From positions 106,137-170,136 of the forward strand of contig CAYRKM010000001.1 in the NCBI GenBank assembly GCA_964425075.1: 64,000 nucleotides of DNA, given 5' to 3'. Within the stretch, counting starts at the first letter, position 1, and every line of letters starts with the position of its first letter. The notes beneath the pieces are model-generated. The model did not search any database. It had not been told where the DNA came from and saw only the letters and a list, made by a program, of their open reading frames with translations. A program made the translations under genes and the position numbers. Positions 4,158-23,600 of the stretch are shown piece after piece. Source of the stretch: an uncultured Gammaproteobacteria bacterium. Its GTDB lineage: Bacteria > Patescibacteriota > Microgenomatia > Levybacterales > GWA1-39-11.

Positions 4158-5882
4158 TTAATTTACAATTCTTTGGGACTTTTCTAAATCCACATTTCGA
4201 TCTTTTTTATTCTCAAGAATGCGAATAAATGGTAATGTGAACACAATTGATGTTCCTTCTCCAAATTTTGAATGAACAGAAATATTGCCTCCATGGCTCT
4301 CAATGATAGCTTTTGATATATATAGACCTAGTCCAGTTCCGCGTCTCCTATGAAGATTGGTTGCTTGAGAAAATGGTTGGAAAAGCTGTTTTATTTTTTC
4401 ATCCTCTATTCCTATTCCATTGTCTCTTACCTCAATTTCTATGTTATTTCCTTTTAATCTAGAAAAAATCTCAACTCTCCCTCCCCTATTTCCAAACTTA
4501 ATTCCATTAGACACCAAATTTGCCAAAACTTGCTCAATTCTAACGGGATCAAAGGCAAAGATGGGTACATCTACACCTTTGTACTTTTCTATCGTTATTC
4601 CCCTATTGTTGGCCTCGTACGTGAATGTTTGGACAAGCTTGTCGATAATTTCATTGATGTCTGACTGTTTGGGAATTATTTGCATTTTTCCTATATCGAT
4701 TTTGGCCGTGTCAAGAAGCTCTTGAATATCATTCAAAAGCCTTTCTGTTGAGTCATGAAGAATGTGCTTAAGCTTTAATTCATCATCTCTCTCTAATTTT
4801 TCTGCTAAAAGAAGCGAGGAAGCTCCCCTCATAGCTGTTAATGGCGCTCTAAGCTCATGAATGACCATATTTACAAATCCCTCACGTGTTTTATCAAGCT
4901 CTTTTTCAACAGTTATATCCTGCATCGTAACGGAAACCCCAATTATGGTTTCGTCATTTGAATCAAAAACAGGCGTAAGATAAATATTGAAGTGTTTTTC
5001 ACTTATCTCTACATTTCGGTAAAATGTACTTTTTTTCATAAGGATTACCTCTTTCATTTCGGTAATTAAGTTTGGGGAAAGTTTGAAGCTATTCAAAACC
5101 TGAACAAGCTCCAATTCTCCTGAAAGTTTCAAAAATCTTTTAGCTGCATTATTTATCGTAAACAGTTTCAAACTATTATTTTCTATAGTAAAAAGCATCG
5201 CTCCAGACGAAAGGCTTTTTATCAATGACTCAACTTTGCCCTTCTCTGTCTCAATTACATTCTCTAACCTACCGATTGCAAATTGAGCCTGATTTACGAT
5301 TTTATACAAAAGACTCATATCCTCGTCTTGATAAGCATGCGGAGTGCTTGATGATATATTTATAATTCCAATAAAGCGATTGTTAAGAACCAATGGAATA
5401 TTAAAATAAGACTGAGGAACCCCATCATAGGGAGTCAAACTATCAAGCAATGACTCATCTTCCTTGGAAATATGTGCTCCTGCGGACTTCTCAATAAGCG
5501 GAAAAGATTTTAGCGAATCATCTATTTCATAAACTGCCTGGAGCATGATTTGCTTAACACCCGAAAGATATGAAGGGCCCACCTTCTCTTTGGTTAAAGT
5601 TGTAAGTTCTAAATGCCCTTTATCAATTATCGTGAAAGAAACAGATGAAACTTTAAAAAGCTTTTCTATGGTTGAGGCCAAAGTTGTTGCTACATCTTTT
5701 ATGCTTAATGTGTATCCTGTTTTGTCTGAGATCTCCTTTAAAATGCTTAATTCAAATAGTTGCTGAGAATGTTTTTTTTCTTTTTTAAAAAGCTCTAGTT
5801 TGGTAGACTTGAGGCGAAAATACAAATAAACGGTCGTAAGACTCGTTATCAAAAATCCAAACATTGTAAAAGTCTCAAGCAT
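4158..5882 (-). CDS. sensor histidine kinase (N-terminal TM, GAF/PAS-like sensory region, HisKA + HATPase_c)
   Basis: H-box HELRAPLTAMRG. N/G1/G2 boxes (LVSNGIKFGNRGGRVEI.. DNGIGIEDEKIKQLFQPF.. GTGLGLYISKAIIESHGG). N-terminal hydrophobic segment. Confidence 0.85.
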   Translation of the reverse strand: MLETFTMFGFLITSLTTVYLYFRLKSTKLELFKKEKKHSQQLFELSILKEISDKTGYTLSIKDVATTLASTIEKLFKVSSVSFTIIDKGHLELTTLTKEKVGPSYLSGVKQIMLQAVYEIDDSLKSFPLIEKSAGAHISKEDESLLDSLTPYDGVPQSYFNIPLVLNNRFIGIINISSSTPHAYQDEDMSLLYKIVNQAQFAIGRLENVIETEKGKVESLIKSLSSGAMLFTIENNSLKLFTINNAAKRFLKLSGELELVQVLNSFKLSPNLITEMKEVILMKKSTFYRNVEISEKHFNIYLTPVFDSNDETIIGVSVTMQDITVEKELDKTREGFVNMVIHELRAPLTAMRGASSLLLAEKLERDDELKLKHILHDSTERLLNDIQELLDTAKIDIGKMQIIPKQSDINEIIDKLVQTFTYEANNRGITIEKYKGVDVPIFAFDPVRIEQVLANLVSNGIKFGNRGGRVEIFSRLKGNNIEIEVRDNGIGIEDEKIKQLFQPFSQATNLHRRRGTGLGLYISKAIIESHGGNISVHSKFGEGTSIVFTLPFIRILENKKDRNVDLEKSQRIVN

Positions 5883-6004
5883 AATTTAAGTATGAAATAA
5901 AAATTAACAGGTAGCAAGTAGTAGCGGACTTAAGGTATGGGGAATTATTAAGAGTGATTGGTGGGAGACGACGCGCGATGCGTCGCCCCCCACCGGTTGC
6001 AGAG

Positions 6005-6409
6005 CTACGAAGCAGCGAGTGCTTCCTCGACCTCGAACATGTCGCTGGATCGAAAGAAGAGGAATTTTTGTTTCCATGAGAGACGTTCCACATCAACTGC
6101 GTTGATGATTTCACGTCCCCGCTGGCTATCGTCCCGGACAATCCCTTGGATTTCCGAGAGGCTAATGGGCGCTCCTTCGATCTCGGCATCGTCAAGTTTG
6201 CCCGTGCGGGCATCCCTCAACCCTTCCGAGATGTTCTGGAGCTCTGCCATCAAGATGGCAAAAGCCCCCTCGTCGTACTCCCTGCGGGAGCAGACGACGA
6301 ACCCGAACAGTCGAACAGCCACGAAACACTTCCCTTCTCGGCATAGCCGAATTCGCTCTGCTATATGTCTTACCGAAAGTGACTTTTGAGAACGTGCAAC
6401 CGCGCTCAT
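6005..6409 (-). CDS. hypothetical protein encoded in a GC-rich island (likely horizontally acquired)
   Basis: 134-aa ORF that fills the GC-rich block ~5940-6410. Other-frame ORFs are shadows typical of GC-rich DNA. A CGACGC-GCGAT-GCGTCG hairpin lies just past its stop. Confidence 0.4.
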   Translation of the reverse strand: MSAVARSQKSLSVRHIAERIRLCREGKCFVAVRLFGFVVCSRREYDEGAFAILMAELQNISEGLRDARTGKLDDAEIEGAPISLSEIQGIVRDDSQRGREIINAVDVERLSWKQKFLFFRSSDMFEVEEALAAS

Positions 6410-6570
6410 ACATCACAAACAGTACCTACAATTTTACTCCTTTTGAACCCAAATGTCAAGCTATAGGATGTTTCTGCTACCCAGAAATAGGATAACTTTT
6501 TGAGCAATGACTAATGGTTAATAGCTAATAGTTTTTTTGTATTTCAAACTAATTTTTCTCTTTCGTCGTT

Positions 6571-6760
6571 TAGTACTGAACATATGAATAACCGAATGAA
6601 TGAGTGGCCGCGAAGCGGAAGAACTGAAAAGGCGAAGTCCGAGTTCTTAACGAATGAATGAGGTTTTGAATACGTGAAGGACTATTGACGAGAGCTTTTG
6701 CCTGCACTGAGTGAAACGAATGTGGTACTTTTCTCGGTAGAAAAGTACATGAGCTCGTTA
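6571..6760. repeat. intergenic repeat element, copy A (family shared with 43025..43130 and 61327..61510); contains a 9-bp-stem hairpin GTACTTTTC-tcggta-GAAAAGTAC
   Basis: Shared blocks with copy B: GTACYGAACATATGAA, CGAATGAG (x2), GAATACGTGARGRAC-ATTGACGAGAG-CTTTGC, then the hairpin followed by A(T/A)GAG. Confidence 0.6.
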
Positions 6761-7102
6761 TTTCGTGAGGCTTTCCAATCTATCCGCGGTTTTCTTACTC
6801 CCTATCACAATAATGTACGTTCCCAATACAAAACATACACCTTTTATCAAAAATACTCCAACGGAATAGACATTGCTATAACTTATCTGAAAATAGGAGT
6901 TAATTGCATCAATTATTATTCCCAAAGCCAAAAATAATACTCCTGTAGCAATTGTTTTAAAACCGTGAGCCAAAATTCCACTTCCAAATTTTTTTGTAAC
7001 CTGATACATAATAAGCGCGGCGGTAATTGCAGCAAATGCAGCCACAAAAGAAATTCCATTTACGATAATGGTTAAGAATTGAAGGTCATTAAATTCGTAC
7101 AT
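6758..7102 (-). CDS. small polytopic membrane protein (3-4 predicted TM helices), hypothetical
   Basis: Hydrophobic helices throughout (FLTIIVNGISFVAAFAAITAALIMY, ATGVLFLALGIIIDAI, VGVFLIKGVCFVLGTYIIVIG). Confidence 0.5.
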   Translation of the reverse strand: MYEFNDLQFLTIIVNGISFVAAFAAITAALIMYQVTKKFGSGILAHGFKTIATGVLFLALGIIIDAINSYFQISYSNVYSVGVFLIKGVCFVLGTYIIVIGSKKTADRLESLTK

Positions 7103-7155
7103 AATCTATTCTAGTCACAATAAAGATAAGATGTAAACCACCTATCTCAATTCAT

Positions 7156-7719
7156 TTACTTTTGAGCTGAATTCTCGGTTGATAATGGCGACTTTGAGAG
7201 TTCATCAAGAGCATGATTCAATTCGTCCAATTGGTTTTGAGAAAATTGTGGCGGCTCTATTTTTTCTTCAGTTTTATTTTCTTCTATAACTTGAGGTTGT
7301 GGATTTGCATTTATAATAGGTGGTTGATCCACTTTTATTGGAGTGGGTGAAAGAACTGAATTAAGAGGTACGGTTTCTTGGGGCATAACTTGAGGCTGAG
7401 ATGGAGAATACATGGGAGCTCCAAGGGTTACTGCAGACTGAGAAGCATTCCCCAATAACACTCCTGGATATGAAGTCAAAATCGACTCCATTGTCTTTTT
7501 CACAATCATTCCAGAAAGCTCAACGAATTGATTGATAAGTTGCTGCAAAAGTTGTTGAGGATCCCCCGTAATGGTTTGAACTACTCCCCCATTATCTACT
7601 GTAATCCCTTGTACGTTTTTGACCTTGGCAAGCGTAATATCGGGCCCCAAAACAAGCATTTGCTTTCGGATTAGCTCAGTAAAGATTGTTTTATAGTCTG
7701 TGTCGTTAGTGGGCAGCAT
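7156..7719 (-). CDS. hypothetical protein with low-complexity Pro/Gln-rich C-terminus, co-directional and immediately downstream of the response regulator
   Basis: ORF abuts 7726..8106. No recognisable motif. Confidence 0.4.
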   Translation of the reverse strand: MLPTNDTDYKTIFTELIRKQMLVLGPDITLAKVKNVQGITVDNGGVVQTITGDPQQLLQQLINQFVELSGMIVKKTMESILTSYPGVLLGNASQSAVTLGAPMYSPSQPQVMPQETVPLNSVLSPTPIKVDQPPIINANPQPQVIEENKTEEKIEPPQFSQNQLDELNHALDELSKSPLSTENSAQK

Positions 7720-7725
7720 ATGAAT

Positions 7726-8106
7726 TTATGATTGGTTATCTCCTAAAATTCCTTTTACCTTTTTCACCAAATCCTCATTTGAAATTTGATATTTCAAAAT
7801 ATAGTCAACTGCCCCAACTCCAAGGGACTCATTTACCATTTGGTCATTTGAAAAATTGGTTAGCATTGCAACTTTTACGTTATTCGTTAATGAATTACCT
7901 TTTAATTTCCTTAAAACCTCATTGCCAGATAAATCGGGCATCATTTGATCAAGCAAAACAAGGTCGTATGCAATATGTTGAGCCTTATCAAGCGCCTGTT
8001 GACCATTTTCCGCAATTGTTAACTCGTAGCCAGCTTGTTTTAAAACAGTTTCAAATACTGTCCGTGTCTCTGGCTCGTCATCAACCAACAAAATCTTTTT
8101 TGACAT
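7726..8106 (-). CDS. CheY-like single-domain response regulator (receiver domain only)
   Basis: KILLVDDEP..D..LLDQMMPDLSG..VAMLTN receiver signature (DD pair, phospho-acceptor Asp, conserved T and K). 126 aa, so no output domain. Confidence 0.8.
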   Translation of the reverse strand: MSKKILLVDDEPETRTVFETVLKQAGYELTIAENGQQALDKAQHIAYDLVLLDQMMPDLSGNEVLRKLKGNSLTNNVKVAMLTNFSNDQMVNESLGVGAVDYILKYQISNEDLVKKVKGILGDNQS

Positions 8107-8330
8107 AAAAACCTCCTAATATCAGGCTATCAACTCTGTAAAAAAATTGCAAGCCCTCCTACGTTAAAACTTCGGAGGGCACAGTCCACCTAAAATCATT
8201 CTTCAAACCGTGTTCAAAATTGAACTAAAAAAGTTTGAAGCAAGATATGGCGATCAAGGTTTCACCAACTTTCTTTTGAGGCTAATATAGTATAATTGCC
8301 AAACAAAAACTGTCATGCTAGTATGAATGC

Positions 8331-9245
8331 ATGAGTGAGAATATGAATGCAGAGATTGTAAATCCGGAAACGGTTCAAAAAAGTCCAGAAATTGCAGTCG
8401 TAACAGCCACATTCTATCCTCAGTGGCATGATACAAATACTGAAAGCGAGGCAACCTCTGATAAATTGAGGGGTGATTTGGCCCTTCAATCCGTTGATGC
8501 TGCCATAAACCAAGGATTTAGAGTGGCAATTGTAGATGGTGGGAGTTCTCAGGAATTTGTAGATACTTTAAAACTACGCGGTGTAGATTTTGAGGCACAA
8601 AAAGAACAAGGCGGGCAAGGACCCGCTCGGCGTCAGGCTCTAGAGATGGCAACTCGAGCTGAAGGAGTACAAGTAATTTGTCAAACTGAACCTGAAAAAG
8701 TTTCTATGGTCGCAGATTGTCTCCAAATCGCAGCCCAACCCATCTTAAATGGTGAAGCTGATATTGTGGTTCCAAAAAGAGGACCAGAAAGTTTTGCTAC
8801 TTACCCTGAGTATCAAGCTCTGCAAGAACAAAAATCTAATGCTTTATATAATAGGATTTTGCGCTCACGTGGACTATTAAAAGAGGAAGAACCTGATATT
8901 GATTTTTGGGTTGGTGTAAGGATATTTACCAATAAGCCTGAAGTTTTACAAGTTTTTACAGAAAAAGAAGAATTTGAACCCATTGATACAGAGCTGGATA
9001 AAAAGATAAGGATTGATATGTATTCAAATCCTCTTTTCTATCCTGTTGTAAAAGCTCTTTATAACGGTTTGCGAGTAAAATCAGTTGATGTGCCCTACGT
9101 TCATCCTGCCGCTCAAACCGAGCTGGAATCGGGAAATAAGGAGTTTGATAGAAAACGCGATACTCAAAGAAGAACTATTTTGACAGAATTAATACATCTT
9201 ATTCGAACAAAAGAAAACCCAAAAAAATCTCGCCTCAAACATTAA
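8331..9245 (+). CDS. hypothetical protein, possibly GT-A fold glycosyltransferase-like
   Basis: IAVVTATFYP ... RVAIVDGGSS loosely recalls the GT2 N-terminal and DxD region. Weak. Confidence 0.3.
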   Translation: MSENMNAEIVNPETVQKSPEIAVVTATFYPQWHDTNTESEATSDKLRGDLALQSVDAAINQGFRVAIVDGGSSQEFVDTLKLRGVDFEAQKEQGGQGPARRQALEMATRAEGVQVICQTEPEKVSMVADCLQIAAQPILNGEADIVVPKRGPESFATYPEYQALQEQKSNALYNRILRSRGLLKEEEPDIDFWVGVRIFTNKPEVLQVFTEKEEFEPIDTELDKKIRIDMYSNPLFYPVVKALYNGLRVKSVDVPYVHPAAQTELESGNKEFDRKRDTQRRTILTELIHLIRTKENPKKSRLKH

Positions 9246-10112: not shown

Positions 10113-10955
10113 CTAATTCACCCAAAATTTAGTCCCGTCTGTAACAATTTCAATATCCCCTTTCTCATCAGTTCTTAAGTATTTTAGGTTATTTTGCTTT
10201 AAAACATCTAAAACTTCTTTATGGGGATGCCCATAGCGGTTGTTTTTGCCTGAAGAAATTATTGATAACTCCGGCTTTATGTGTGAGAAAGTTTCATTGT
10301 CCGTACCTGTATATGAGCCGTGATGGGAAAGTTTGAGAACATCAATATCTTTTTGAGTATCAATTATTGTATTCAAAATCTCTTTATCAAGATCTCCATC
10401 AAGTAGTAATTCAAAATTCCCAAACTTTACGATTTGAACTAAAGATAAATTGTTATCATCCGCCCCAACATTTTTTTCAAATTCCTTTGTTGGCCAAAGG
10501 GTAAGTATCTCGACTGAACTTGAGAATACAAATTTGTCTCCTTTGTAAATTATTTTATTTACAGAACCCTCTTTCTTGACTAATTCCTCCAAATACTCAT
10601 AGCTTTGGGCAGGAGAAGTATTGCTGCTTTTAGCATAATAAATTATTTTATAAGCCTCAAAAATACCACTTAAGCCACCATAATGATCAAGGTCAGCGTG
10701 AGTTGAGAAAACTATATCAATGGTTCTGTCCCAAAACGGCATGTGACGACTCAAGCACTCAAGCATTTTTTCATTTGCCCCTGCGTCCACTACAATATCT
10801 TTTTTGTCAGGAGTTCTTATGTAAATCCCGTCCCCCTGCCCCACGTCACAAAATACAATATGAAGCCTATTATCAGACGACTTTATGGCTTGATAAATAC
10901 TCATAGTCATTAAGACAAAAGTTGAAAATAATATTAATATGAGGTTTTTCTTCAT
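10113..10955 (-). CDS. ComEC C-terminal-type metallo-beta-lactamase-fold domain protein (separate ORF)
   Basis: HxHxDH motif (STHADLDHYGG), additional His/Asp ligands. ATGA start/stop overlap with the ComEC membrane ORF upstream. Confidence 0.7.
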   Translation of the reverse strand: MKKNLILILFSTFVLMTMSIYQAIKSSDNRLHIVFCDVGQGDGIYIRTPDKKDIVVDAGANEKMLECLSRHMPFWDRTIDIVFSTHADLDHYGGLSGIFEAYKIIYYAKSSNTSPAQSYEYLEELVKKEGSVNKIIYKGDKFVFSSSVEILTLWPTKEFEKNVGADDNNLSLVQIVKFGNFELLLDGDLDKEILNTIIDTQKDIDVLKLSHHGSYTGTDNETFSHIKPELSIISSGKNNRYGHPHKEVLDVLKQNNLKYLRTDEKGDIEIVTDGTKFWVN

Positions 10956-12142
10956 TTACCCTTTACTTTTATAATTACTGCAAGCAACAACAAATAGTAT
11001 CCTAACATCAATGGCAAAGGCAAATATGATGAATTTATACTCAAGTTTATACTGCTAAAAGTTTCGACAATTAGCCTGAAATAGAACAAAAATGGATAGG
11101 AAATTAAGAAAAACGGGTAGGAAAGCGCTGGAAATAGTAAGGAAATAAGACTACCAATCCCCGCTAGTCCCATAATCAACGGCACTGTCCATAGAATTAA
11201 AAAATTAACTGGAAAAGAAATTAGTGGAAAAGATCCAAAAGTACCAAGAAGAAGTGGAAATGTTGTGATTTGGGCAGAAACAGTTGTTGAAATATCATCT
11301 CTTATAATTGTAAACATAAAAAAGCGGTCTATGAGAGGTTTTATTACAAGAATTCCAAATGTTGCGGCAAATGAAAGTTGAAAAGAGATGTCCTCAATTA
11401 ATGTGGGTGAGAAAAGCACCATGAACCAACCTGAAAGGACCAGGAGCCAAACGCTCACCTGCTGTTTGCCCAAAAGCAATGCAGTATACGACAAAAATGC
11501 CATGATACTTGCCCTTACAATCGGCGGATCAAAACCTGCAAGAAGTGCGTAAAACAGTATAATTAAGCCTGTTGAGGCAACTGCAAACTTTCTTTTCATG
11601 AAGGATTGAAACACTGGCAACAAAAAGCCTGCAAGAATTGAAACATTTGCGCCGCTTGCCGCAACTACATGTAAAACCCCTACACTTCTAAGTTCCTCAT
11701 AATAACCTGGTGGGATTTTATCCCTAACCCCAAGTACGATTCCAAGTAATAATCCTGCTTCTTTTGCTGGCATTACTGCCATAACTGATGATGACACTCT
11801 CTGGCGGATGAATTTTGAGAGTGCTAGAAATGAACTTGAATTTTTGTATTTTGTAACCTTTGGGTTTTTTACCAACAAAAGGTCGCCATTTACTGACAAC
11901 TCTACTTCTCCTTCTAATTTTACCTTGTCTCCGTATTCAAATTTGGGAAATAGGGGTAAGGTTACCAAAACATTATCTGTGAAAAAGTATTGTGAAATAT
12001 CATTTTTTTTGGGTTCCTTAAGGAAAGTATAATCTTTAACAAAAGTCTCTCCAGGCTCAAATACGTGTCTTTCTGAATAAAAAAAGAGAAGTCTTATGGA
12101 AAGTACTATAAAAAGGATGATAAAAAGAAGAAATCGCTGCAT
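10952..12142 (-). CDS. comEC: DNA internalisation competence protein ComEC/Rec2, membrane (competence) domain
   Basis: Polytopic. LRSVGVLHVVAASGANVSILAGF matches the ComEC channel motif (..G..HL.A.SG.HV..L). Sits between comEA and the MBL-domain ORF. Confidence 0.7.
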   Translation of the reverse strand: MQRFLLFIILFIVLSIRLLFFYSERHVFEPGETFVKDYTFLKEPKKNDISQYFFTDNVLVTLPLFPKFEYGDKVKLEGEVELSVNGDLLLVKNPKVTKYKNSSSFLALSKFIRQRVSSSVMAVMPAKEAGLLLGIVLGVRDKIPPGYYEELRSVGVLHVVAASGANVSILAGFLLPVFQSFMKRKFAVASTGLIILFYALLAGFDPPIVRASIMAFLSYTALLLGKQQVSVWLLVLSGWFMVLFSPTLIEDISFQLSFAATFGILVIKPLIDRFFMFTIIRDDISTTVSAQITTFPLLLGTFGSFPLISFPVNFLILWTVPLIMGLAGIGSLISLLFPALSYPFFLISYPFLFYFRLIVETFSSINLSINSSYLPLPLMLGYYLLLLAVIIKVKGK

Positions 12143-12753
12143 TAAAAGGTGGAAATATTATCTTTTATAGCATCAAATGTTTTTTGGCCAAGCACTTTCT
12201 TCTCGATAAGCTCTTCAATTTTTACATATGGCCGATTATCTATTATTTTTTGAGCTGTAACAGGACCAATTTTTGGCAAACTTTCAAGTTGGGATGAGGA
12301 AGCTGAATTGATATTGATTAAACCCGAAAATGAGGTTGTGGAGTTCGAATTTGAGCCCGTAGAGACAATTCCAGCAACCTCCTCGCCCCTGGCTGGAATA
12401 TAAATTTTCAAACCATCGGTAACCGGTTGAGCTAGATTTAGGGCCTTTGAGATATATTCTCTATCAGCGTCAACCGAAAGTCCGCCCGCTGCAGATAAAG
12501 CATCTTGTATTCTTGAATTAGCTTTAAGCTCATAAACACCAGGTTTCTCTACACTACCTGCAACATCAATAAATATTTTTGAATTAGTATCATCTGCCTT
12601 AGCCTCTGAGGGAATAAATTCTATGTCATTTTTTGGAGGTGATAGATACTGAAATAATCCAAAAACTATTAAGATAATTGAAGCTGAAAAAAGACCAACG
12701 AAGAGAAGATTTTGACGGATAAATTTGAGTATGAATGGTTGTTCACCCTCCAT
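12142..12753 (-). CDS. comEA: ComEA-like DNA-binding competence protein (N-terminal TM anchor, C-terminal helix-hairpin-helix)
   Basis: C-terminal HhH region INSASSSQLESLPKIGPVTAQKIIDNRPY...LGQKTFDAIKD. N-terminal TM. Confidence 0.75.
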   Translation of the reverse strand: MEGEQPFILKFIRQNLLFVGLFSASIILIVFGLFQYLSPPKNDIEFIPSEAKADDTNSKIFIDVAGSVEKPGVYELKANSRIQDALSAAGGLSVDADREYISKALNLAQPVTDGLKIYIPARGEEVAGIVSTGSNSNSTTSFSGLININSASSSQLESLPKIGPVTAQKIIDNRPYVKIEELIEKKVLGQKTFDAIKDNISTF

Positions 12754-12869: not shown

Positions 12870-15869
12870 CTATTTAACCACTATATTGAGGATTTTTCCC
12901 TCTACGTATATAACTTTTACAACATCTTGCCCTTCTAAGTACTTTGAAAGTTGCTCTCTTGCCATTTTTTCTATCTTTTCCTTATCCTTTGCCTCAAGAG
13001 ACTTAACCTCAATAATAAGCCTCTTTTTACCGTTAACCTGCACTACAATATCAGCAGTTTCACTCTGAAGCATTGCGCTATCAAAGTCTGGCCATGAGCT
13101 TATGTGAATTGAGTTAGTATTTCCTAATTTCTGCCACAGCTCCTCTGTCATGTGAGGCGCAAATGGGGCCAAAAGCTTTAAATATGTCTCTTTTTCTTCT
13201 CTCATCAACCCTTCTTGAGTAGAAAGAAAGTTATACCATTCCATTAGTGAGGCTAAAGCAGTATTGTTTGTAAACTCTTCTACCTGTTTTGTTACCTTTT
13301 GAATTGTTCTGTGCATAAATCTTTTTGCTTCAATTGAAGCTTCGTTTGTCTCAGGTTTCTCGCTTATGAGTTTCCAAACTTTCTTAAGGAATCTATTCAT
13401 TCCCTCAATTCCACTATCTCTAAAGTCTCCACCCTCAGATAAAGGTGCGATAAACATTAAATAAGAGCGCAAAGTATCAGCCCCATATTTAGAGATATAT
13501 GCATCAGGAACTACCACATTGCCCTTAGACTTTGACATTTTCGCCCCATCTTTTATCACAAGGCCATTAGCAAAAAATCTGGAAAATGGTTCTTCGAAGT
13601 TCAAATATTTCAAATCGTGAAGCGCCATCGTGATAAAACGCGCATACAAAAGATGTAGCACTGAATGTTCAGCTCCGCCAATATACATATTCACAGGAAG
13701 CCATTTTTTAGTAATTTCTGTATCAAAAGGTGCGGTTTGTATATCAATTGATGGGTATCTTAAGAAATACCATGCGCTATCAAGAAACGTATCACTAACA
13801 TCAGTCTCGCGTTTAGCTGGCTTACCACACTTAGGACAATCAACTTCAAAAAACTCAGGATGGTTATCAAGGGGAGCTTTTCCTGTGCCCATTGGTTTCC
13901 AATCTTCTACATCCGGAAGCAAAACAGGCAATTTATCATCAGAAACACAATACCATCCGGGCATGTCATTACGCTCACCCTTATTGTTTGTTGCACAATT
14001 CTCACAATAAATCATCGGAATTGGTGGTCCCCAATAACGTTGTCTAGAGATAAGCCAATCTCTAAGGTGATACTGTATCTTTCTTTTGCCAATTTTCTTT
14101 GCCTCAAGCGAGCTCAAAATTTTATCAGCGTCTTCCGGCATGTGAAAACCATTCCATTCATCAGATCCTATAATTTCTCCTTTTCCCTCAAACGCTTCAC
14201 TTAATTCTCCATTCTTAATTCTTGACTCTTTATCTTGAATTACTTGGACAATCGGTAGATCATATTTCTTAGCAAACTCGAAGTCTCTCTGGTCATGAGC
14301 TGGAACTGCCATAATTGCACCCGTCCCATAGCCTGAAAGAACATAGTCTGCTACAAAAATTCGTATTTTTTTCTGATTGAGTGGATTTATGGCAAAAAGA
14401 CCAGTATCTACTCCAGTTTTTTCTTTTCCTTCTGCAGTACGCTCAATATCCGTCTTGCTCTTCGCCATTTCTATATACTCTTTAACTTCTTGACCATTGT
14501 TATTATTTGCTACTTGCTCCGCAAGCGGGTGCTCTGGTGCAATTACCATAAAAGTTGCCCCATATAATGTATCAGGCCTAGTTGTAAAGACTTTTAGGCT
14601 ATTTAGCAAAACTTCAAGTACCTTTGGCTCAATTTCTCCACAGATGTGATCATCTTTGGACTCAAAATCTATGATTTCTCCACCAATTTGTTCCTTTATG
14701 TAGTCTGCTCTCTCTTTTGGTACAGCAGTATCATTTTTAGCTCTTAACAGTACTATATTCGCCACATTTTTCTTTATGGTTTGTGTATCAAACTGTCCGA
14801 TTTGTTCCTCAAATGACTTATCATGATCTAAAAATCCTGGCTGCATAAATCCGGCTCCTAAAACTAAATTTTTAATAGGCTTTTCCAGCTTTTCAAGAAC
14901 TTTTAAGGCAACGACTGAACCAAGGCTATGCCCTAAAATTACCGTATTTTCATCAATTTGAGCATTTTTTAAAACAAATTCAGCCTGTTCATCTATATTA
15001 GGATTATCAGTATTGGGCAGGTTTTGAGCCCAAACTTTATTGCCCCTCTTTTCTAGTTCTTTCTTAAGCCATGGAAAGAAATTAGCCTCAACTGACCCAG
15101 TATATCCATGCAAAAGAACATAATTAGACTTTTCATCTACTTCAAACTCCACTTCTGCTCCTTCGCTTTTTCCTATCCAATTTCTTTGGGCAATTTTGAC
15201 CTTTTCAGTCCAATTGAGACTCTCAATATTATTTAAAAGTCTCTCAGCGTAATTTGTAATCCTAAAAAACCACTGCTCAAGCTCTTTCTTCTCCACTTTG
15301 CTTCCACATCTCTCACACTCTCCTGCTATAACCTGCTCGTCAGATAACACTGTTTGATCCTGAGGACACCAATTTACGGTCGCCTTTTTACGGTAAGCAA
15401 GGCCATTTTTAAAGAGTTGTGTGAAAAGCCATTGTGTCCATTTATAATATTCAGGGTCATAAGTTTCAATTGTCCTATTCCAATCAAATGAATTTCCAAT
15501 ACTTTTAAGTTGGCGGTAGAAGTTAGACTCTGCTATTTCAGCCTGAACTTTTGGATGACGGCCCACTTTCATGGCATAGTTTTCACTATGGATTCCAAAT
15601 CCATCAAGCCCAATTGGCTCGAAAACATCATTTCCCTTCATTCTCTGGTAACGCCCATATACATCAGCGCCTGTAAAAGCGTACATATTACCCACGTGAA
15701 GACCCTCAGCTGAAGGGTACAGGAACATCATGAGGTTGAAAAAAGGTTTTTTTGCGTTGATTATATTTGGAGAATACAATTTATCACTCTCCCAAACTTC
15801 CTGCCATTTGGCTTCAATTTCTGAGTGGTTATACTCCTTTTTTGAACTGTTTTGTTTATCTTGTGCCAT
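12870..15869 (-). CDS. leuS: leucyl-tRNA synthetase with an inserted alpha/beta-hydrolase (RBBP9/YdeN-type serine hydrolase) domain preceding the CP1 editing domain
   Basis: HIGH-type motif LHVGNMYAFTGADVYGRY. KMSKS motif (KMSKSKGN). CP1 editing signature TTRPDTLYGATFMVIAPEHP...GTGAIMAVPAHDQRD. Anticodon-binding and C-terminal domains present. About 175 extra residues (aa ~250-426) carry GHSLG plus Asp and His. Confidence 0.9.
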   Translation of the reverse strand: MAQDKQNSSKKEYNHSEIEAKWQEVWESDKLYSPNIINAKKPFFNLMMFLYPSAEGLHVGNMYAFTGADVYGRYQRMKGNDVFEPIGLDGFGIHSENYAMKVGRHPKVQAEIAESNFYRQLKSIGNSFDWNRTIETYDPEYYKWTQWLFTQLFKNGLAYRKKATVNWCPQDQTVLSDEQVIAGECERCGSKVEKKELEQWFFRITNYAERLLNNIESLNWTEKVKIAQRNWIGKSEGAEVEFEVDEKSNYVLLHGYTGSVEANFFPWLKKELEKRGNKVWAQNLPNTDNPNIDEQAEFVLKNAQIDENTVILGHSLGSVVALKVLEKLEKPIKNLVLGAGFMQPGFLDHDKSFEEQIGQFDTQTIKKNVANIVLLRAKNDTAVPKERADYIKEQIGGEIIDFESKDDHICGEIEPKVLEVLLNSLKVFTTRPDTLYGATFMVIAPEHPLAEQVANNNNGQEVKEYIEMAKSKTDIERTAEGKEKTGVDTGLFAINPLNQKKIRIFVADYVLSGYGTGAIMAVPAHDQRDFEFAKKYDLPIVQVIQDKESRIKNGELSEAFEGKGEIIGSDEWNGFHMPEDADKILSSLEAKKIGKRKIQYHLRDWLISRQRYWGPPIPMIYCENCATNNKGERNDMPGWYCVSDDKLPVLLPDVEDWKPMGTGKAPLDNHPEFFEVDCPKCGKPAKRETDVSDTFLDSAWYFLRYPSIDIQTAPFDTEITKKWLPVNMYIGGAEHSVLHLLYARFITMALHDLKYLNFEEPFSRFFANGLVIKDGAKMSKSKGNVVVPDAYISKYGADTLRSYLMFIAPLSEGGDFRDSGIEGMNRFLKKVWKLISEKPETNEASIEAKRFMHRTIQKVTKQVEEFTNNTALASLMEWYNFLSTQEGLMREEKETYLKLLAPFAPHMTEELWQKLGNTNSIHISSWPDFDSAMLQSETADIVVQVNGKKRLIIEVKSLEAKDKEKIEKMAREQLSKYLEGQDVVKVIYVEGKILNIVVK

Positions 15870-16216
15870 GTTTTAATTGTAAATTGCCCCCCTGGCGAGC
15901 CTCGCCTTTGGCGGGAAAACTGTGAATTAGCTTCGAAATTCAATACGACTTTATAATCGTTATATCCGACATTACTTTATTATAAGGCATATTTCATTGA
16001 AAATTGAAAATTGAAAAATGAAAATTGCACTCTAGTATACCAAATGAGGCTAAAAAAACACCATGCAATTTACTCCAGGATATATAATTATGGTATAATT
16101 ACTTCCTTAGCAACCCGGTTCTGACACGCAAAAAGCTTGCGCTTATTAGGACTGTGGATGCAGTTCTTTGACAGCGTAGGTTAACACCAACGATAACTCG
16201 CTATAGGAGGTAAAAC

Positions 16217-16489
16217 ATGCCGCTCCTGATTGCTCTGTGGCTGATGTCCTGCATCGGCATTGGAGTACGAACGTACTCCAATCCGAAGGACATTAAGGGC
16301 ATCGCAATTGCGTTTGGACTTTGTGCTGTCCCACTCACGTGGGCATTCGGCAACGGTCCGGCCGCAATCATCATTGCGGTCTCTTTCCTCGTCTGTATTC
16401 TCTTTGGAGCCTGGCTTCGAAGATATTACGGCGAGGAGATCAACCAGTTCTTGTGCAGGCTCGAGGAGAAATTCTACGAGCTGAAATAA
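16217..16489 (+). CDS. small membrane protein in a GC-rich island (hypothetical)
   Basis: Strong SD (TAGGAGGTAAAACATG). Two to three TM helices. GC-rich relative to flanks. Confidence 0.5.
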   Translation: MPLLIALWLMSCIGIGVRTYSNPKDIKGIAIAFGLCAVPLTWAFGNGPAAIIIAVSFLVCILFGAWLRRYYGEEINQFLCRLEEKFYELK

Positions 16490-16544
16490 TGCAGACTAGA
16501 AAACCCAGCGACCAATACCCAACCTGAAAGGAAGGGATGAACAG

Positions 16545-17084
16545 ATGCGACCAGGAAAAGAAACCGTCAAGAACGCAGGCTTTGTTACTATCGTGGCAAC
16601 GTTTACGATCATGATTGGGGTACTCTTTGTGGCTTCTGGAGAGAAACCAGAACCTGCAACGAGCTCCAGGGCCAAAGTTGACCTCCAGTTGTTGGCCTCG
16701 CCAACAACTGTACCAACACTGCTTCCTGCAGCTTCTCGCTGTTCTGAAGCAATATACATATACCCTCAAGGCGTAATTCTATTCCACAACTTGGATCCAT
16801 ATCCTGTCGATGGATTCGATTTCCAAGTCTGCACAACAGACAGGATGACGCCGATAACAGCTGCTGATATGATGGTCGCAGCTAACGAGGGGCAACTCGC
16901 AATGGAGGAAAGTCTCCTCTGGGATCCAGACCTTCTAATGAGAGTATTCTTAGAAGCGGCTGTCCCAAGGATATCGCAACTCCATCCCGAGCTAAGAGGG
17001 CTGCTTCTGGAGACATACTTCCAGTTCATACCTAAAGGAGGAGTCATCCCCACAGCGACAGCAACATCAAGACCCTCTACATAG
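16545..17084 (+). CDS. hypothetical N-terminally TM-anchored protein in a GC-rich island
   Basis: N-terminal TM (FVTIVATFTIMIGVLFVASG). Same GC-rich block as 16217..16489. Overlapping ORFs in other frames are treated as GC shadows. Confidence 0.45.
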   Translation: MRPGKETVKNAGFVTIVATFTIMIGVLFVASGEKPEPATSSRAKVDLQLLASPTTVPTLLPAASRCSEAIYIYPQGVILFHNLDPYPVDGFDFQVCTTDRMTPITAADMMVAANEGQLAMEESLLWDPDLLMRVFLEAAVPRISQLHPELRGLLLETYFQFIPKGGVIPTATATSRPST

Positions 17085-17124
17085 GGGCGGCACATCGATT
17101 GGCTAAGAAACCTACGCGACTAGA

Positions 17125-17165
17125 CTCCCGCTTTGCCCTAACCGGCTGAGCGGGAGAAACCCTTT
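17125..17165 (+). terminator. stem-loop (CTCCCGCT ... AGCGGGAG, 8-bp stem) followed by a short T-run; terminator-like, closes the GC-rich island
   Basis: Perfect 8-bp inverted repeat 17125-17132/17149-17156, then AAACCCTTTT. Confidence 0.35.
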
Positions 17166-17213
17166 TAAAGCCCCAAACTTGAACTTTCTATATAAATCCA
17201 CTACGATTAAATT

Positions 17214-17822
17214 ATGCCGCTACTCTTTCAATCAATATCAATTCTCTCATCCATATTCTTTGTTTATTTAGTACAAAACTCTGTATTTAGCAGTTATTCT
17301 TCGTATCTGCTAGCCCTCCTAATTATCTTTTCAATTATCTATACTACGCTCAAAAAACGCTCAAAATCAGCTAATACTCTTTTTTCTGGCACTCCTATGG
17401 AGTTGTTTGCTAGTAGCAGCATAATTCTTTTGATAATTAGCCTTACAGGCAATATTTCCTCCCCTCTCTTCTTCTTTCTATACTTTTTATTAATAATGCT
17501 TGTTTTTCTTTCAGGCCCAATTAGCACTCTCATATTTGCTTTGGGATTAACTCTATACTTTTTACCTGAAACCTTAAATAATCCTGTCCCTGAAAACATT
17601 GTAAAACTAGCTTCATTTATTCTTTTAGCTCCAATCGGATACTTTATAGGGCGGGAATTTGAAAACAGAAAGGTGCTTGATGAAAAAATTGAAGCTAAAA
17701 CTGAGGAAATTATACAAGAAGCTCAAAATCTTAAAGAAGCGTCAAAGCAGCCTGATGAAGAAGAAGCTTTGGACGAAATTATCGAAGAGGCAGAAAGTTT
17801 GAGGCAAGACAGTGAAAAATGA
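17214..17822 (+). CDS. polytopic membrane protein with acidic coiled-coil C-terminal tail, hypothetical; ATGA-overlaps the next gene
   Basis: Four to five hydrophobic helices. C-terminus EEEALDEIIEEAESLRQDSEK. Stop overlaps the start of 17819..18595. Confidence 0.5.
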   Translation: MPLLFQSISILSSIFFVYLVQNSVFSSYSSYLLALLIIFSIIYTTLKKRSKSANTLFSGTPMELFASSSIILLIISLTGNISSPLFFFLYFLLIMLVFLSGPISTLIFALGLTLYFLPETLNNPVPENIVKLASFILLAPIGYFIGREFENRKVLDEKIEAKTEEIIQEAQNLKEASKQPDEEEALDEIIEEAESLRQDSEK

Positions 17823-20613: not shown

Positions 20614-23600
20614 ATGGAATTCCTTGAACTATTCAAAAGACAACTTACACAAACTTCAAATGGTATTTCAAAAATAAGCCTGAAGAACTATCTTTCTGAT
20701 ATTCGTCACTTTATTAACTGGTTTGAGTACACCACAGGGAACACTTTTTCACCAAAAAATATTACCGCAGAGGTAATTGAGCTATATATTGCATCCCAGG
20801 GAGCAGTAATTTCAGACGGAAACCTTTCAACCCAAGACAAACTTTCGCCAAGCTCTATGAAAAGACATCTTTCCTCGCTTCGAAAGTTTGTCTCGGTGCT
20901 CAAAAAAGAAAACCTACTTGAAGAAAATCCGTTTGAGGAAATTAACCAGACAAATGAAGAACAGAATTACGATTATTGGCACTTTGATTCATTTAAAGAT
21001 TATTTGCTCCAAAATAATGCCTCAAAATTAACCGTAAAAAATTATCTTTCTGATATAAAAGGTTTTGCAAGTTGGTACGAACAGGCAATATTACCTACGC
21101 TTATTTCCCCTCTCACCTCAACTAATGGTGCTTATCGGATCTCTCAAGAAATAGTTCAGGAATATAAAGACAGATTGTTTAATATACAATCATCAGCTCC
21201 ACGCACAATTAACCGCAAACTGTCTTCACTCCGCCGATATTTGGAGTTTGGAACGAATAAGGGCTTTATTAATCCTGGAGAAATAGTTCTACCTTCTATC
21301 CAAATAGGGAAAGAGGAGGCAGAACCTGTAAAGATTCAGCTAAAAGATCTTAATCAAACTCAAACTTTAGAAACAAAAAGCTATTCTTCCTTTCCTCCAG
21401 CAAGACTTCTTCAAAAGCTAGTTATTTTCCCTTATTTACTTCTTGAAGATGCCGTTGCCTCAAAAGTCGCAACAATTATGACTGGAAAAGAAATGATTGC
21501 AGGAATTGCACTTTCTCAATTAGATAAAGTGAAAATGAGCACTCGCGCTATAGTCAATGCTCAAAATCAATCAATTGACGCGATTTTGGGCGTAAGAAAT
21601 GTAAAAAAGGAATTCTATGCTCCTCACCAAGTACAATTATCTGGACTCCCTTTCCACAAAAAATTACTTTATCATGCACGATATACTAGACCAAAATGGT
21701 ATAAAACATATCATAGTTATCCATTTGTACATTATGCCCATTTTGCACTCCTTATAATCTTTGCAGTTGGAGTTGGGGTTGCAGCTTATCAGAATTTGGT
21801 AGGAAAAAATCAAAGACCAACCTTTGCCGCCCCCACGGCTCCACCGAGAATACTTTCATTTCAGGGAAGACTAACTGACGCAAGTGATAACCCAATTACA
21901 AGTGCAACGGATATCCGGTTTGCAATTTATAATGATCTTTCAGCATCAGGCGCTGCTCTTTTGTGGCAAGAAGTTCACTACGTTGTAACCCCTGACCAAG
22001 ATGGAATATTCTCCGTACTTTTGGGAACAAATGATGCAATACCTTCAACTGTATTTTCAGATAATGCAGGAACTTATCTTGGTGTTACAATCAACCAAAC
22101 ATCAGAACTTACGCCACGTCAAAGAATTGCCGCAGTTGCATACGCTACTAATTCTGAACAGCTTCAAGGAATGCCTCCTATTACCGCAGGTGGGGCTGGA
22201 ACCTCAAATGTTGTACTAGCACTTGATTCATCAGGTAATCTAACCATTGGTGGAAGCGCAGCTCCAACCTTTACAGCCTCGGGGGGTCAATTCAGACTAT
22301 CGGGTCAGCCTCTTGTTCTAAATACAAATTCAAGTTCAAATGGAAATATCGTTCTTGCTCCTGATGGACTTGGAAGGATAGATCTTCAAAAACCACTAGT
22401 AAATAGTGGAACTTCAGGGAACATTACTCCAGGGGGAGTTGAGGTAAATGATAAATTTGGAGTTCTTGCAACAGAATCGGGAGTCGCATCATTTGTTATC
22501 AACAACAATGGTTCAAGCGACATTTTTACAGCCTCATCATCGGGATCTCCTCGCTTTACTATCTCAACAACAGGCGCTCTTACTATTCCAACATATAACA
22601 CAAATGGTGGAATCTTCTATGCAAATGGTTCGGGAGTTGTTGCACAGACAACTGCAGGAAGCTCGGGGGAATGTTTGCAGTCAATTGGAGGAGGAACACC
22701 AACTTGGGGATCTTGCGGAAGCGGCAGCGGAAGTCTTTGGAGATTATCAAGTGGCGCTTTATCTCCCATAAATGATACTGCGGATGTATTGATTGGAAGT
22801 AATGCTACAGCAAGCGCGAAATTCGCATTCATAAATGTTGCTGGGGGAACACCAACAGCTTCAATCTCTGCAAGTAGCGGAAACAATTGGACAACATTAA
22901 GCGGAGATGGAATTTTGGGAACAACAAACAAACAAACACTTTCTATAGGAAACAGCTCGACAGGAATTATTGCAATTAATTCTCCCGAGAACAGTAAAAC
23001 CTCAATTGGAACAGGCTCAACACTTGGAACACTTAAGATTTCAGGTCAGTCTCCGGGAAAAGCTTTAGTAAACCTCCAATATCTAGGGTCTGGTCAAAAT
23101 ATTTTGGTTGCATCAAATTCCGCCGGAACCAATGTCTTTACTATCGAGGAGGACGGAGACATTATTGTGGGAAATGCGGGTGCAGGCAAATTGACAGCTG
23201 CAATAATTGACCCTTATCTAATCCAAAATCAATACACGTCAGTTACTCCCGAACTTATTTTCCAAACAATGGCAGCTACAAGTGGAGACTTTATATATAA
23301 AAACCAATCAACCGAGCTTGCACGCCTTGCCCAAGCCGGACAATTTCAACTTCCAATAACAGGCTCTTCAGGAGGACTTGTAATTGGAGCTGACACACAG
23401 CTTTTTAGAGGCTCTGCCGATAGGCTTGATTTAGCATCAGGCGACTCATTTAATCTTGTTTCGGGTAGCATTCAAATTGGCGGAACTACGGTTATTGACT
23501 CCTCACAAAATGCAACATTCAGCAGCCTAACTGTTACTGGTGGATGTACGGGTTGTGTAAGCGCATCAGATTCACCTTTTAAGGTATTAAGTGGTGCAAT

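Follow-up and report, generated by a model that had tools for sequence, protein, structure and literature searches.

The leuS gene of the window, a stretch of 64,000 nucleotides, raises the question of what a serine hydrolase is doing inside a leucyl-tRNA synthetase (LeuRS) that already has an editing domain of its own. LeuRS is among the best-studied enzymes of translation, and its CP1 domain is a model for amino-acid proofreading. The gene (12870-15869, on the minus strand, as are all features described below) appears in the list of open reading frames as a single, unbroken frame of 999 amino acids. Its product matches the bacterial LeuRS profile TIGR00396 (leuS_bact) with 910.8 bits against a cut-off of 548.4, in two stretches that flank the insert, and the archaeal LeuRS model TIGR00395 with 181 bits only. 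The LeuRS structures of T. thermophilus (hereafter Tt; 1H3N) and E. coli (4AQ7) match the host at E<=1e-180. The host is collinear with these bacterial-type enzymes over its full length and has all of their motifs; it differs from them in an extra enzyme domain of 177 amino acids and in the lack of the leucine-specific domain, Tt residues 579-634 being unpaired in the alignment.

The N-terminal part of the synthetase (aa 1-247; 15129-15869), which pairs with Tt 3-239, comprises the first Rossmann half, the ZN1/CP1-hairpin region and the N-terminal beta-strand linker EGAEVEFEV. It contains the class I HIGH motif as HVGN (aa 58-61; 15687-15698), and the KMSKS loop of the synthetic site is present as well (aa 777-781; 13527-13541). 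The core of the CP1 editing domain (aa 425-605; 14055-14597) is matched by PF13603 with 223 bits (aa 423-588 on profile positions 21-184). The editing motifs TTRPDT (aa 429-434; 14568-14585) and AHDQRD (aa 524-529; 14283-14300), the latter containing the HDxRD aspartates, are both intact, and the editing domain is therefore as complete as a first-pass annotation of this DNA had held it to be. The same CP1 motifs are intact in every relative compared, whether or not it bears the insert. Judged by the complete set of synthetic and editing motifs, no LeuRS activity is replaced by the hydrolase. Directly downstream of leuS, Pfam identifies comEA (12142-12753) and a split comEC (10113-12142, with Competence at 10952-12142 and Lactamase_B at 10113-10955); the order leuS-comEA-comEC is also seen at the filled and empty allele loci L037-L039.

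The flanking halves of the host pair with Tt 3-239 (aa 12-247) and Tt 243-578 (aa 425-772), so that the extra piece corresponds to aa 248-424 (14598-15128). Its length had been estimated closely beforehand (about 175 residues, 177 in the Tt alignment) and its location recognised, but with the ends off by two codons (14592-15122). When the insert alone was compared with Pfam, a check proposed in the first-pass annotation, the expected match to PF06821 (Ser_hydrolase) was obtained at 49.9 bits, above the cut-off of 22; within the whole protein the score was 45 bits. The best sequence matches in the PDB were to YdeN (1UXO, E=1.4e-13) and RBBP9 (2QS9/9FCR, E~2e-6). The AF2 model of the insert alone has a pLDDT of 93.4 and a pTM of 0.91, and the top PDB structures returned for it by Foldseek were again RBBP9 and YdeN (9FCR, 1UXO, 2QS9 and 7OEX; TM 0.80-0.85, E~1e-13, probability 1.0), at 22-26% identity in the Foldseek alignments. 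The full-length AF2 model, likewise suggested earlier, places the folded hydrolase at the CP1 hairpin with a pLDDT of 81-95, mostly ~90, and the insert is the best-modelled section of the protein. It is like the known family members in fold, size (~180 aa) and motif order, and it belongs to a distinct CPR/DPANN subfamily with the signature FFPWLKKELE ... LPNT..P ... EP.vL; free-standing homologues carry the NCBI name 'RBBP9/YdeN family alpha/beta hydrolase'. No YbaK-type homology was found for it among Pfam and TIGRFAM profiles, neither PF04073 nor TIGR00011 giving a match. By profile match and predicted fold, the insert is a complete, self-contained RBBP9/YdeN-family serine hydrolase. Known members of this family are free proteins, whereas the insert is internal to another enzyme.

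The insert had been placed directly before CP1. It does adjoin the editing core, but the insertion point falls within the PF13603 model, where it separates profile positions 20 and 21. The position corresponds to the tip of the first beta-hairpin of CP1 (Tt 240-242), where the insert takes the place of the loop in the hairpin EVEFEV-EGSDVV-LKVFTT of the nearest insert-less relative, P0278. The junctions read ...EVDEK/SNYVLL... and ...LLNS/LKVFTT..., with linkers to LeuRS of ~3 and ~2 residues. Strand E249-253 and helix H415-421 of the insert adjoin LeuRS strands E234-245 and E424-429 in the full-length AF2 model, and the hydrolase as modelled is grafted rigidly onto the hairpin tip. An 8-nt repeat, AAAAGTCT, flanks the insert in the window (p=0.03); junction repeats beyond chance were found at 0 of the 23 other loci. 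Insertion of the transposon or IS type was rejected, as no target-site duplication or terminal repeats are consistent across loci.

The active-site elements follow one another in the order HG, G-x-S-x-G, Asp and His, which is canonical for the family. The HG motif of the oxyanion hole (H254-G255; 15105-15110) is invariant in alignments A1 and A2, and is followed by the nucleophile elbow G-H-S315-L-G (14919-14933), the catalytic acid Asp380 (14730-14732) and the catalytic His408 (14646-14648). Asp380, invariant in alignment A2, is aligned with the RBBP9 segment STDDPFLP and pairs with RBBP9 Asp138. In the alignment of free-standing homologues, the HG, Ser, Asp and His columns of the insert are invariant. 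Among LeuRS copies at the position seen in the window (site 1), the Ser nucleophile is present in 56/56, as it is in 73/74 free-standing homologues, and the catalytic His in 56/56, with a further 10/10 at a second LeuRS site (site 2); the acid of the site-1 copies is Asp in 45 and Glu in 7 of the 56. The catalytic Asp is often substituted in site-2 copies, a point against a hydrolase role coupled to LeuRS. As the alignments show, the family signature is as strong in embedded copies as in free-standing enzymes. The intact triad reported initially is thus present (Ser315, Asp380, His408) and conserved among embedded copies, and from these residues we infer that the insert is apparently catalytically competent. 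Many of the copies have an acidic residue close to where RBBP9 has Glu108, in a loop where the alignment is uncertain. The charge and pI of the insert gave no pointer to function.

In the survey of related LeuRS sequences that had been recommended, 72 of the 120 nearest LeuRS clusters proved to carry this insert at this position, as did at least 26 GTDB species genomes with a CPR or DPANN label. Its presence is patchy on the host tree, requiring at least 12 Fitch changes, and close LeuRS relatives without it exist. P0274 and P0308 are 98.9% identical over host columns, and the insert is present in only one of them; over 7.2 kb, their loci share ~98% identity and are set apart only by the insert, ~577 nt in one against 34 nt in the other, with the breakpoints of the swap inside conserved host codons. 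The insert is an optional accessory cassette that has been gained and lost. Since CP1 is intact in every relative and close relatives manage without the insert, its role would be conditional. Host clades with a bootstrap of 100% in the host tree receive 0% in the insert tree. Moreover, the window insert is 13 points closer to DPANN inserts (CI 8-18), and the window host LeuRS is 13 points farther from DPANN (CI -16 to -10). Sequence comparison thus indicates that CPR bacteria and DPANN archaea have exchanged the cassette between their LeuRS genes. Homologous recombination within the strongly conserved codons on either side (WIGKSEGAE ... VFTTRPDT) appears to be the means of exchange.

Close free-standing relatives of the insert are genomically linked to leuS. 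On an archaeal contig, 25 nt separate P0005 from the bacterial-type leuS downstream of it; for P0020 and P0007, leuS follows at 1.3-1.4 kb. P0003 belongs to a tightly packed array of hydrolase, hydrolase, YbaK-like deacylase, Ham1 and archaeal-type leuS. No leuS linkage was found for the more distant family members P0013, P0214 and P0264. Among 142 full-length copies of the domain, drawn from the searches to that point and mostly from the best 150 matches of one of them, ~53 are embedded, and LeuRS is the host of 44 of these. A second LeuRS site, independent of the first, is found in the ZN2 zinc module of other LeuRS; its location away from CP1 speaks against a function tied to LeuRS quality control. 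Rare embedded copies occur in ValRS, AlaRS, TsaD, Der, SecA, UvrA and Fmt, each a singleton host, and the hydrolase is also fused C-terminally to a GatA-like amidase. SecA, UvrA, Der and TsaD handle no aminoacyl esters, which again argues against coupling to LeuRS. The wider family forms end-to-end fusions with NUDIX, HD, IMPase, S51 (P0092, a YdeN-S51 peptidase fusion), methyltransferase, riboflavin kinase and ANT domains. The LeuRS of P0077 carries GNAT and hydrolase domains in tandem at site 1, and many LeuRS relatives contain a NUDIX domain inside CP1, with an intact NUDIX box in 25/25. These co-inserted NUDIX and GNAT domains suit small-molecule detoxification at least as well as tRNA editing. 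Beyond what was noted in the first pass, then, the insert is widespread, optional and exchanged between lineages, its relatives adjoin leuS, and there are sister domains, a second site and other hosts.

Human RBBP9, the one family member for which such activity is known, hydrolyses aminoacyl-X substrates, with a strict requirement for a free alpha-amine, and takes a single such amino acid off its leaving group (PMC8866121). It has also been reported as the enzyme that activates valacyclovir, a valyl-nucleoside ester (Shenoy 2020, as cited in PMC7730578). The first-pass annotation had considered an additional deacylase or a moonlighting fusion. With somewhat less than even confidence, but as the likeliest reading, we suggest that the insert may serve LeuRS quality control as an auxiliary hydrolase that would act on aminoacyl esters or amides. 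Amino acids with a free alpha-amine would be stripped from their ribose or nucleotide carrier. Candidate substrates are the 3' end of mischarged tRNA-Leu that is poorly handled by CP1, or aminoacyl-nucleosides or aminoacyl-nucleotides that arise free as by-products at the synthetic site. By hydrolysing such species, the insert would provide an extra clean-up step in LeuRS quality control. The dominance of LeuRS among the hosts, the linkage to leuS and the aminoacyl chemistry of RBBP9 are counted in favour of this reading.

The hydrolase could conceivably have a function unrelated to LeuRS, for example as a generic esterase or aminopeptidase, and reside where surface loops of highly conserved genes tolerate it, since the conserved sequence on either side would serve as homology arms, which would allow transfer across distant lineages and guarantee expression in tiny genomes. 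The embedding of the subfamily in hosts as diverse as ValRS, AlaRS, TsaD, Der, SecA, UvrA and Fmt, its fusion to the amidase, and the end-to-end fusions of the wider family with many enzyme domains fit such a passenger, as do the discordant insert and host trees, the crossing of the CPR-DPANN divide, the swap breakpoints within conserved codons, the close relatives that dispense with the insert and the DNA-uptake genes comEA and comEC next to leuS. We nevertheless place it on the unlikely side, as LeuRS is far ahead as host, with two independent sites where the others are single clusters, and close free-standing copies adjoin both bacterial- and archaeal-type leuS, once with a YbaK-like deacylase. 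This adjacency is not decisive, since the same route of transfer could have produced it too. A role in resistance, by which the hydrolase would cleave non-hydrolysable aminoacyl-adenylate mimics aimed at LeuRS (microcin-C-like or agrocin-84/TM84-like 'Trojan horse' compounds), is rather unlikely: a natural LeuRS-directed inhibitor is not documented for these habitats, a soluble enzyme would be equally effective and fusion to the target unnecessary, NUDIX enzymes cut pyrophosphate bonds that monophosphate adenylate mimics lack, and the YbaK-like neighbour suggests aminoacyl-tRNA rather than small molecules. Such a module would, however, cast the NUDIX and GNAT domains of sister LeuRS as alternative detoxifiers and the cassette as a spreading resistance determinant, and there are precedents. 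Immunity to aminoacyl-nucleotide antibiotics is conferred by the GNAT MccE, the serine peptidases MccF and S51 MccG, and the nucleotide phosphoramidase MccH (PMC9239234), and a Parcubacteria MccH homologue shielded E. coli from McC (preprint 10.1101/2020.03.04.977132). The GNAT-hydrolase tandem of P0077, the intact NUDIX domains in CP1, the fusion P0092, the presence/absence polymorphism at strain level and the cleavage by RBBP9 of aminoacyl amides bearing a free alpha-amine point the same way.

A non-catalytic, structural or regulatory contribution, in which a vestigial hydrolase would influence tRNA binding or how the editing domain swings, receives some encouragement from the position of the insert next to the CP1 beta-strand linker, at a neck treated as critical for CP1 movement (PMC4138327), and from the very short linkers, which imply rigid coupling. 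It is very improbable all the same, given that Ser and His are kept in all 56 site-1 and all 10 site-2 copies, that HG is conserved, that the family signature is no weaker than in free-standing enzymes and that site 2 is elsewhere in LeuRS. Like an intein, the insert sits in frame where an essential gene is conserved, is patchy in its presence and absence, and has a phylogeny at odds with that of the host, but it lacks the Hint fold, the splicing residues and a homing endonuclease. No intein, Hint or endonuclease family of Pfam matches the protein, in agreement with the absence of intein signatures claimed at the outset, and across 24 loci no splicing residues are conserved at the junctions, neither Cys/Ser at the N-junction nor His-Asn plus a nucleophile at the C-junction. 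The uninterrupted frame and the recurrence of the architecture in dozens of independent assemblies dispel the earlier concern about a frameshifted or chimeric assembly. Since the insert has an alpha/beta hydrolase fold and is the best-modelled section of the protein, it is scarcely credible as a self-excising intein-like element, a product of misassembly or frameshift, or a pseudogene in decay; as modelled, the hydrolase is evidently retained in mature LeuRS as a folded enzyme.

An auxiliary hydrolase coupled to LeuRS quality control would be comparable to the trans-editing factors (YbaK/ProX PF04073, AlaX, DTD), which are also optional and patchy add-ons to aaRS quality control and hydrolyse aminoacyl esters. 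They are not homologous to the insert, however, and differ in fold and in mechanism from the Ser-His-Asp covalent catalysis predicted for it. With its intact active site, a second hydrolase grafted onto CP1, joined in relatives by a third in the form of NUDIX, would add to aaRS quality control or self-defence a layer that has gone unrecognised; such LeuRS add-ons occur in the most gene-poor cells known. The Mcc immunity enzymes (MccE, MccF, MccG, MccH) act on aminoacyl-nucleotide conjugates that poison aaRS, are patchy and often stand-alone, and fall into the same classes as those decorating these LeuRS, but they are not homologous to YdeN/RBBP9. To our knowledge, no Mcc immunity enzyme is fused into its target synthetase, and the present case implicates no inhibitor of LeuRS. 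The NCBIfam entry NF040702, 'isoleucine--tRNA ligase, N-acetyltransferase domain-containing', is a class Ia synthetase with a small-molecule enzyme domain, although both the synthetase and the inserted domain differ from the present case. Our literature search found no publication on the NF040702 architecture or on a LeuRS with a hydrolase insert, in keeping with the initial impression that the fusion is undescribed.

It is possible, though we put it well short of even, that complete, active YdeN-type hydrolase, NUDIX and GNAT domains within conserved CPR/DPANN genes constitute a new kind of mobile domain cassette. Such cassettes would place enzyme domains in frame within surface loops of universally conserved genes and would spread across lineages, and even domains of life, via homologous recombination at conserved host codons; theirs would be an intein-like lifestyle without splicing or homing endonuclease, and those in LeuRS would add new proofreading or detoxifying chemistry. 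Cassette exchange, also where it links bacterial with archaeal episymbionts, is relevant to how accessory functions are gained in minimal genomes, and to the reliability of aaRS genes as CPR/DPANN phylogenetic markers. The filled P0274 and the empty P0308 form a natural allele pair and as such a ready-made experiment.

The leuS gene of the window is a single, unbroken open reading frame (positions 12870–15869, minus strand) of 999 codons' worth of amino acids, and its predicted product is a leucyl-tRNA synthetase (LeuRS) of the bacterial type, scoring 910.8 bits against TIGR00396 (cut-off 548.4) with the match broken in two around an extra segment. In an alignment with T. thermophilus LeuRS (Tt), window residues 12–247 correspond to Tt 3–239 and residues 425–772 to Tt 243–578, so the extra piece comprises residues 248–424 (14598–15128, minus strand) and replaces only Tt 240–242. 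A first-pass annotation had located an insert at 14592–15122; the insert stands, with its limits corrected by two codons. Its placement immediately before the CP1 editing domain needs refining: the exact point is the loop of the first CP1 beta-hairpin (site 1), where the insert interrupts the Pfam editing-domain model between its positions 20 and 21. The nearest insert-less relative, P0278, reads EVEFEV-EGSDVV-LKVFTT at the same loop. The HVGN, TTRPDT, AHDQRD and KMSKS motifs are all found, the middle two in keeping with the earlier description of the editing domain as complete. The leucine-specific domain (Tt 579–634) is missing from the window protein (13530–13562, residues 770–780), in which LVIKDGAKMSK leads directly to the KMSKS loop. 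This recalls the GKDG replacement of that domain reportedly described for Mycoplasma mobile LeuRS.

The proposal that the insert is a serine hydrolase of the RBBP9/YdeN type was confirmed. It matches PF06821 (Ser_hydrolase), the Pfam family that had been anticipated, with 49.9 bits (cut-off 22), and its best solved relatives by sequence are YdeN from B. subtilis (1UXO, E=1.4e-13) and human RBBP9 (E ~2e-6). An AF2 model of the insert (pLDDT 93.4, pTM 0.91) superposes best on RBBP9 and YdeN, with TM scores of 0.80–0.85. The predicted catalytic set is complete (H254-G255, G-H-S315-L-G, D380 and H408), and the triad of Ser315, D380 and H408 is intact as claimed. AF2 models the insert better than any other region of the full-length protein (pLDDT mostly ~90, range 81–95), with linkers of only 3 and 2 residues tethering it to the LeuRS strands. 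An intein was rejected, in agreement with the initial reading, as the fold is that of an alpha/beta hydrolase, no Hint or endonuclease family was matched and splicing residues are absent from the junctions. An assembly artefact or frameshift was rejected on the unbroken frame and on the recurrence of the same architecture in dozens of independent assemblies. We regard a splicing element or artefact as practically dismissed.

The same insertion recurs widely in related LeuRS. Scanning a single genome for each GTDB species recovered 29 loci, 26 of them with a LeuRS that bears the domain at the identical position. When 1.8 billion representatives were searched exhaustively, 1625 relatives of the insert emerged, and LeuRS-embedded copies make up 44 of 142 full-length domain copies, mostly drawn from the best 150 hits. 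The 120 LeuRS clusters nearest to the window protein comprise 53 with the hydrolase, 19 with hydrolase and NUDIX, 4 with NUDIX only and 44 with neither. All 56 site-1 copies keep both Ser and His, and the acidic position is taken by Asp in 45 of them and by Glu in 7; across 72 carriers, mean pairwise identity is 47% for the insert, 56% for CP1 and 62% for the whole host. Judged from these sequences, the putative hydrolase is under selection. The CP1 motifs are intact in relatives both with and without the insert; this rules out a hydrolase making up for a degenerate CP1, and the domain would therefore supplement editing and not replace it.

A second position (site 2) lies directly behind the first CxxC of the ZN2 module (Tt C439/C442; TIGR00396 position ~440), equivalent to window residues ~627–636 (~13962–13991), and is occupied in P0033, P0057, P0065, P0072, P0108 and L026. 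These copies retain Ser and His, with the catalytic Asp often replaced, and the position is an insertion site independent of the first. Convergence of the two sites at the neck of CP1 found no support, as site 2 falls in the ZN2 module and not in the C-terminal CP1 linker. Many related LeuRS carry a NUDIX domain within CP1, with or without the hydrolase (for example L012:3188-6949, L019:3353-6958, L007:3212-6748, L014:3359-6901 and L031:5533-8403), and the NUDIX box GX5EX7REUXEEXGU is intact in all 25 LeuRS examined. The window LeuRS has no NUDIX domain, the equivalent position being residues 545–558 (14196–14237). In one LeuRS of 1318 residues (P0077), site 1 is filled by a tandem of GNAT (residues 306–396) and hydrolase (437–603) domains.

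The same hydrolase subfamily is also embedded in ValRS (P0062 and P0142), AlaRS (P0058), TsaD (P0064), Der/EngA (P0091), a SecA fragment (P0044), UvrA (P0093) and Fmt (P0111), each host being represented by one 50%-identity cluster and ValRS by two; in a GatA-like amidase (P0105) it is C-terminal. This survey covers copies from the sequence search, and a separate profile search gave almost only free-standing YdeN proteins. P0093 and P0111 show Trp at conserved Gly positions (e.g. WHSLWW for GHSLGG), which suggests that their hosts may read UGA as Gly (code 25) and that the genes were translated with UGA as Trp.

The domain behaves as an optional, exchangeable cassette, its presence requiring at least 12 changes when mapped onto a tree of the 120 LeuRS built from host columns alone. 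A pair of alleles documents this most clearly: P0274 (1011 residues, with insert) and P0308 (830 residues, without) are 98.9% identical over host columns. Their loci come from separate sequencing runs, share the order NDK, leuS, 182-aa gene, glyoxalase, comEA, comEC and are ~98% identical across 7.2 kb of aligned DNA. The alleles match at ~98% as far as GGGGCAGAA (the EGAE codons) and resume that match at TCAGAGTTTTTACAACC (RVFTT). In the intervening stretch the empty allele holds 34 nt (IEFRIDNSEIS) and the filled allele ~577 nt (VDFEVEDNSN, the hydrolase and LVTTL). The beta-strand codons immediately 5' of the insert were therefore also exchanged. The empty patch resembles that of phylogenetic neighbours and the filled patch that of other insert-bearing LeuRS, which points to a putative gain through replacement by a donor segment with breakpoints within conserved flanking codons. 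The patch replaced beside the polymorphic cassette is only ~25–35 nt, and SNP density within 100–500 nt of the junctions (1.4–4%) does not stand out clearly from the 1.85% background, giving no clear sign of a longer co-conversion tract. In the window, both junctions carry one exact repeat of 8 nt (coding strand AAAAGTCT; 14588–14604 and 15126–15142; p ~0.03 within leuS). No such junction repeat or target-site duplication was reproduced in 23 other loci, and the repeat is therefore probably due to chance.

Insert and host have conflicting histories. In host trees, the LeuRS of DPANN-labelled genomes form a single clade and the window clusters with L002, L008, L012 and L018, both at 100% bootstrap; in insert trees both clades receive 0%, and the inserts of the window and L002 are nested among DPANN inserts. 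The details of these trees are uncertain, since they were built by neighbour joining on 175 positions. DPANN inserts exceed those of the nearest host relatives by 13 points in similarity to the window insert (95% CI 8–18). For the host part the difference runs the other way, with DPANN 13 points lower (CI -16 to -10), and this reversal of sign is robust. The window itself is bacterial (Rho, ComEA/ComEC, histidine kinase). At least one relative's contig, L031, can be assigned to the archaea from its ribosomal proteins (a score above cut-off for L13_A_E, uS9_arch as best match; S9 at 2594–3016, L13 at 3019–3420) and encodes a bacterial-type LeuRS at 5533–8403. Such LeuRS, with 862–927 bits to TIGR00396, are seen on archaeal-type (L031) or DPANN-labelled contigs (e.g. 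L003:3362-6349), implying that leuS was transferred across domains; on L030, another contig from Pacearchaeota, an archaeal-type LeuRS has been kept.

The closest free-standing relatives (42–52% identity to the insert) adjoin leuS, a linkage that was not seen for more distant members of the hydrolase family. P0005 lies 25 nt upstream of a gene for a LeuRS without hydrolase but with NUDIX in CP1, and P0020 and P0007 lie 1.3–1.4 kb upstream of leuS. P0003 lies in a tightly packed co-directional cluster (L030:5001-9882) of hydrolase, second Ser_hydrolase paralogue, YbaK-like deacylase (tRNA_edit), Ham1-like NTP pyrophosphatase and LeuRS, the last of archaeal type (TIGR00395, 784 bits). Across the wider free-standing family there are end-to-end fusions with NUDIX, HD, IMPase, S51 peptidase, methyltransferase, riboflavin kinase and ANT.

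RBBP9 is alone in the family in having been characterised. Its serine takes up the aminoacyl group to give an aminoacyl-enzyme, and the protein frees a single amino acid from aminoacyl-AMC or peptides, with a strict requirement for a free alpha-amine (PMC8866121). It has also been reported as an activating enzyme for valacyclovir, a valyl ester of a nucleoside analogue (Shenoy 2020, as cited in PMC7730578). Deacylation of an aminoacyl-ribose ester belongs to the same class of chemistry. Our preferred, still tentative, reading is that the insert may be an auxiliary aminoacyl ester/amide hydrolase coupled to LeuRS quality control, acting on the mischarged tRNA-Leu end or on free aminoacyl-nucleoside or aminoacyl-nucleotide by-products. 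It is favoured because of fusion at two sites, the conserved leuS neighbourhood with its YbaK-like gene and the predominance of LeuRS as host; the net charge and pI of the insert gave no clue to tRNA binding.

SecA, UvrA, Der and TsaD as hosts are best accounted for by a hitch-hiking enzyme for which conserved genes serve as landing pads in recombination, an explanation we consider unlikely overall but worth keeping in view. Detoxification of adenylate-mimic aaRS inhibitors is a somewhat doubtful candidate, and an unlikely one, with several parallels to recommend it: the known immunity enzymes are GNAT proteins, serine peptidases including S51 and a nucleotide phosphoramidase (PMC9239234), a set that parallels the GNAT/hydrolase/NUDIX decoration and the YdeN-S51 fusion found here, and an MccH homologue from Parcubacteria acts against McC (10.1101/2020.03.04.977132). 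That the insert serves a purely structural role seems very improbable.

The first-pass view that this architecture was undescribed is borne out by a full-text literature search, in which no account turned up of a LeuRS harbouring a hydrolase, NUDIX or similar domain. A 2026 survey of domain insertions enters the LeuRS editing domain as an insert only, never as a host (PMC13114784). Insert-bearing sequences are already public, labelled merely 'leucine--tRNA ligase' or 'alpha/beta fold hydrolase'. An NCBIfam model exists for IleRS with a GNAT domain, likewise an accessory domain in a class Ia synthetase, so such additions are not unprecedented, and the window LeuRS belongs with the aminoacyl-tRNA synthetases that bear an appended catalytic domain. 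A more novel reading, also credible, would be a mobile domain cassette of a non-splicing kind.

Scans of the whole 64 kb found no tRNA gene and no Rfam family at the gathering threshold. Downstream of leuS, comEC is present as two adjoining minus-strand ORFs (10113–12142), with Competence at 10952–12142 and metallo-beta-lactamase at 10113–10955; the split is also seen in the filled and empty allele loci L037–L039. Upstream of leuS, an island of 46–51% G+C (16050–17250; background ~35%) is probably foreign DNA. It gave no Pfam or Rfam matches and holds two plus-strand ORFs, each with a Shine-Dalgarno-like site, of 90 residues (16217–16489, membrane-like) and 179 residues (16545–17084). A giant plus-strand ORF of 2987 residues (20614–29577) has an N-terminal phage-integrase SAM-like domain as its sole Pfam signal.
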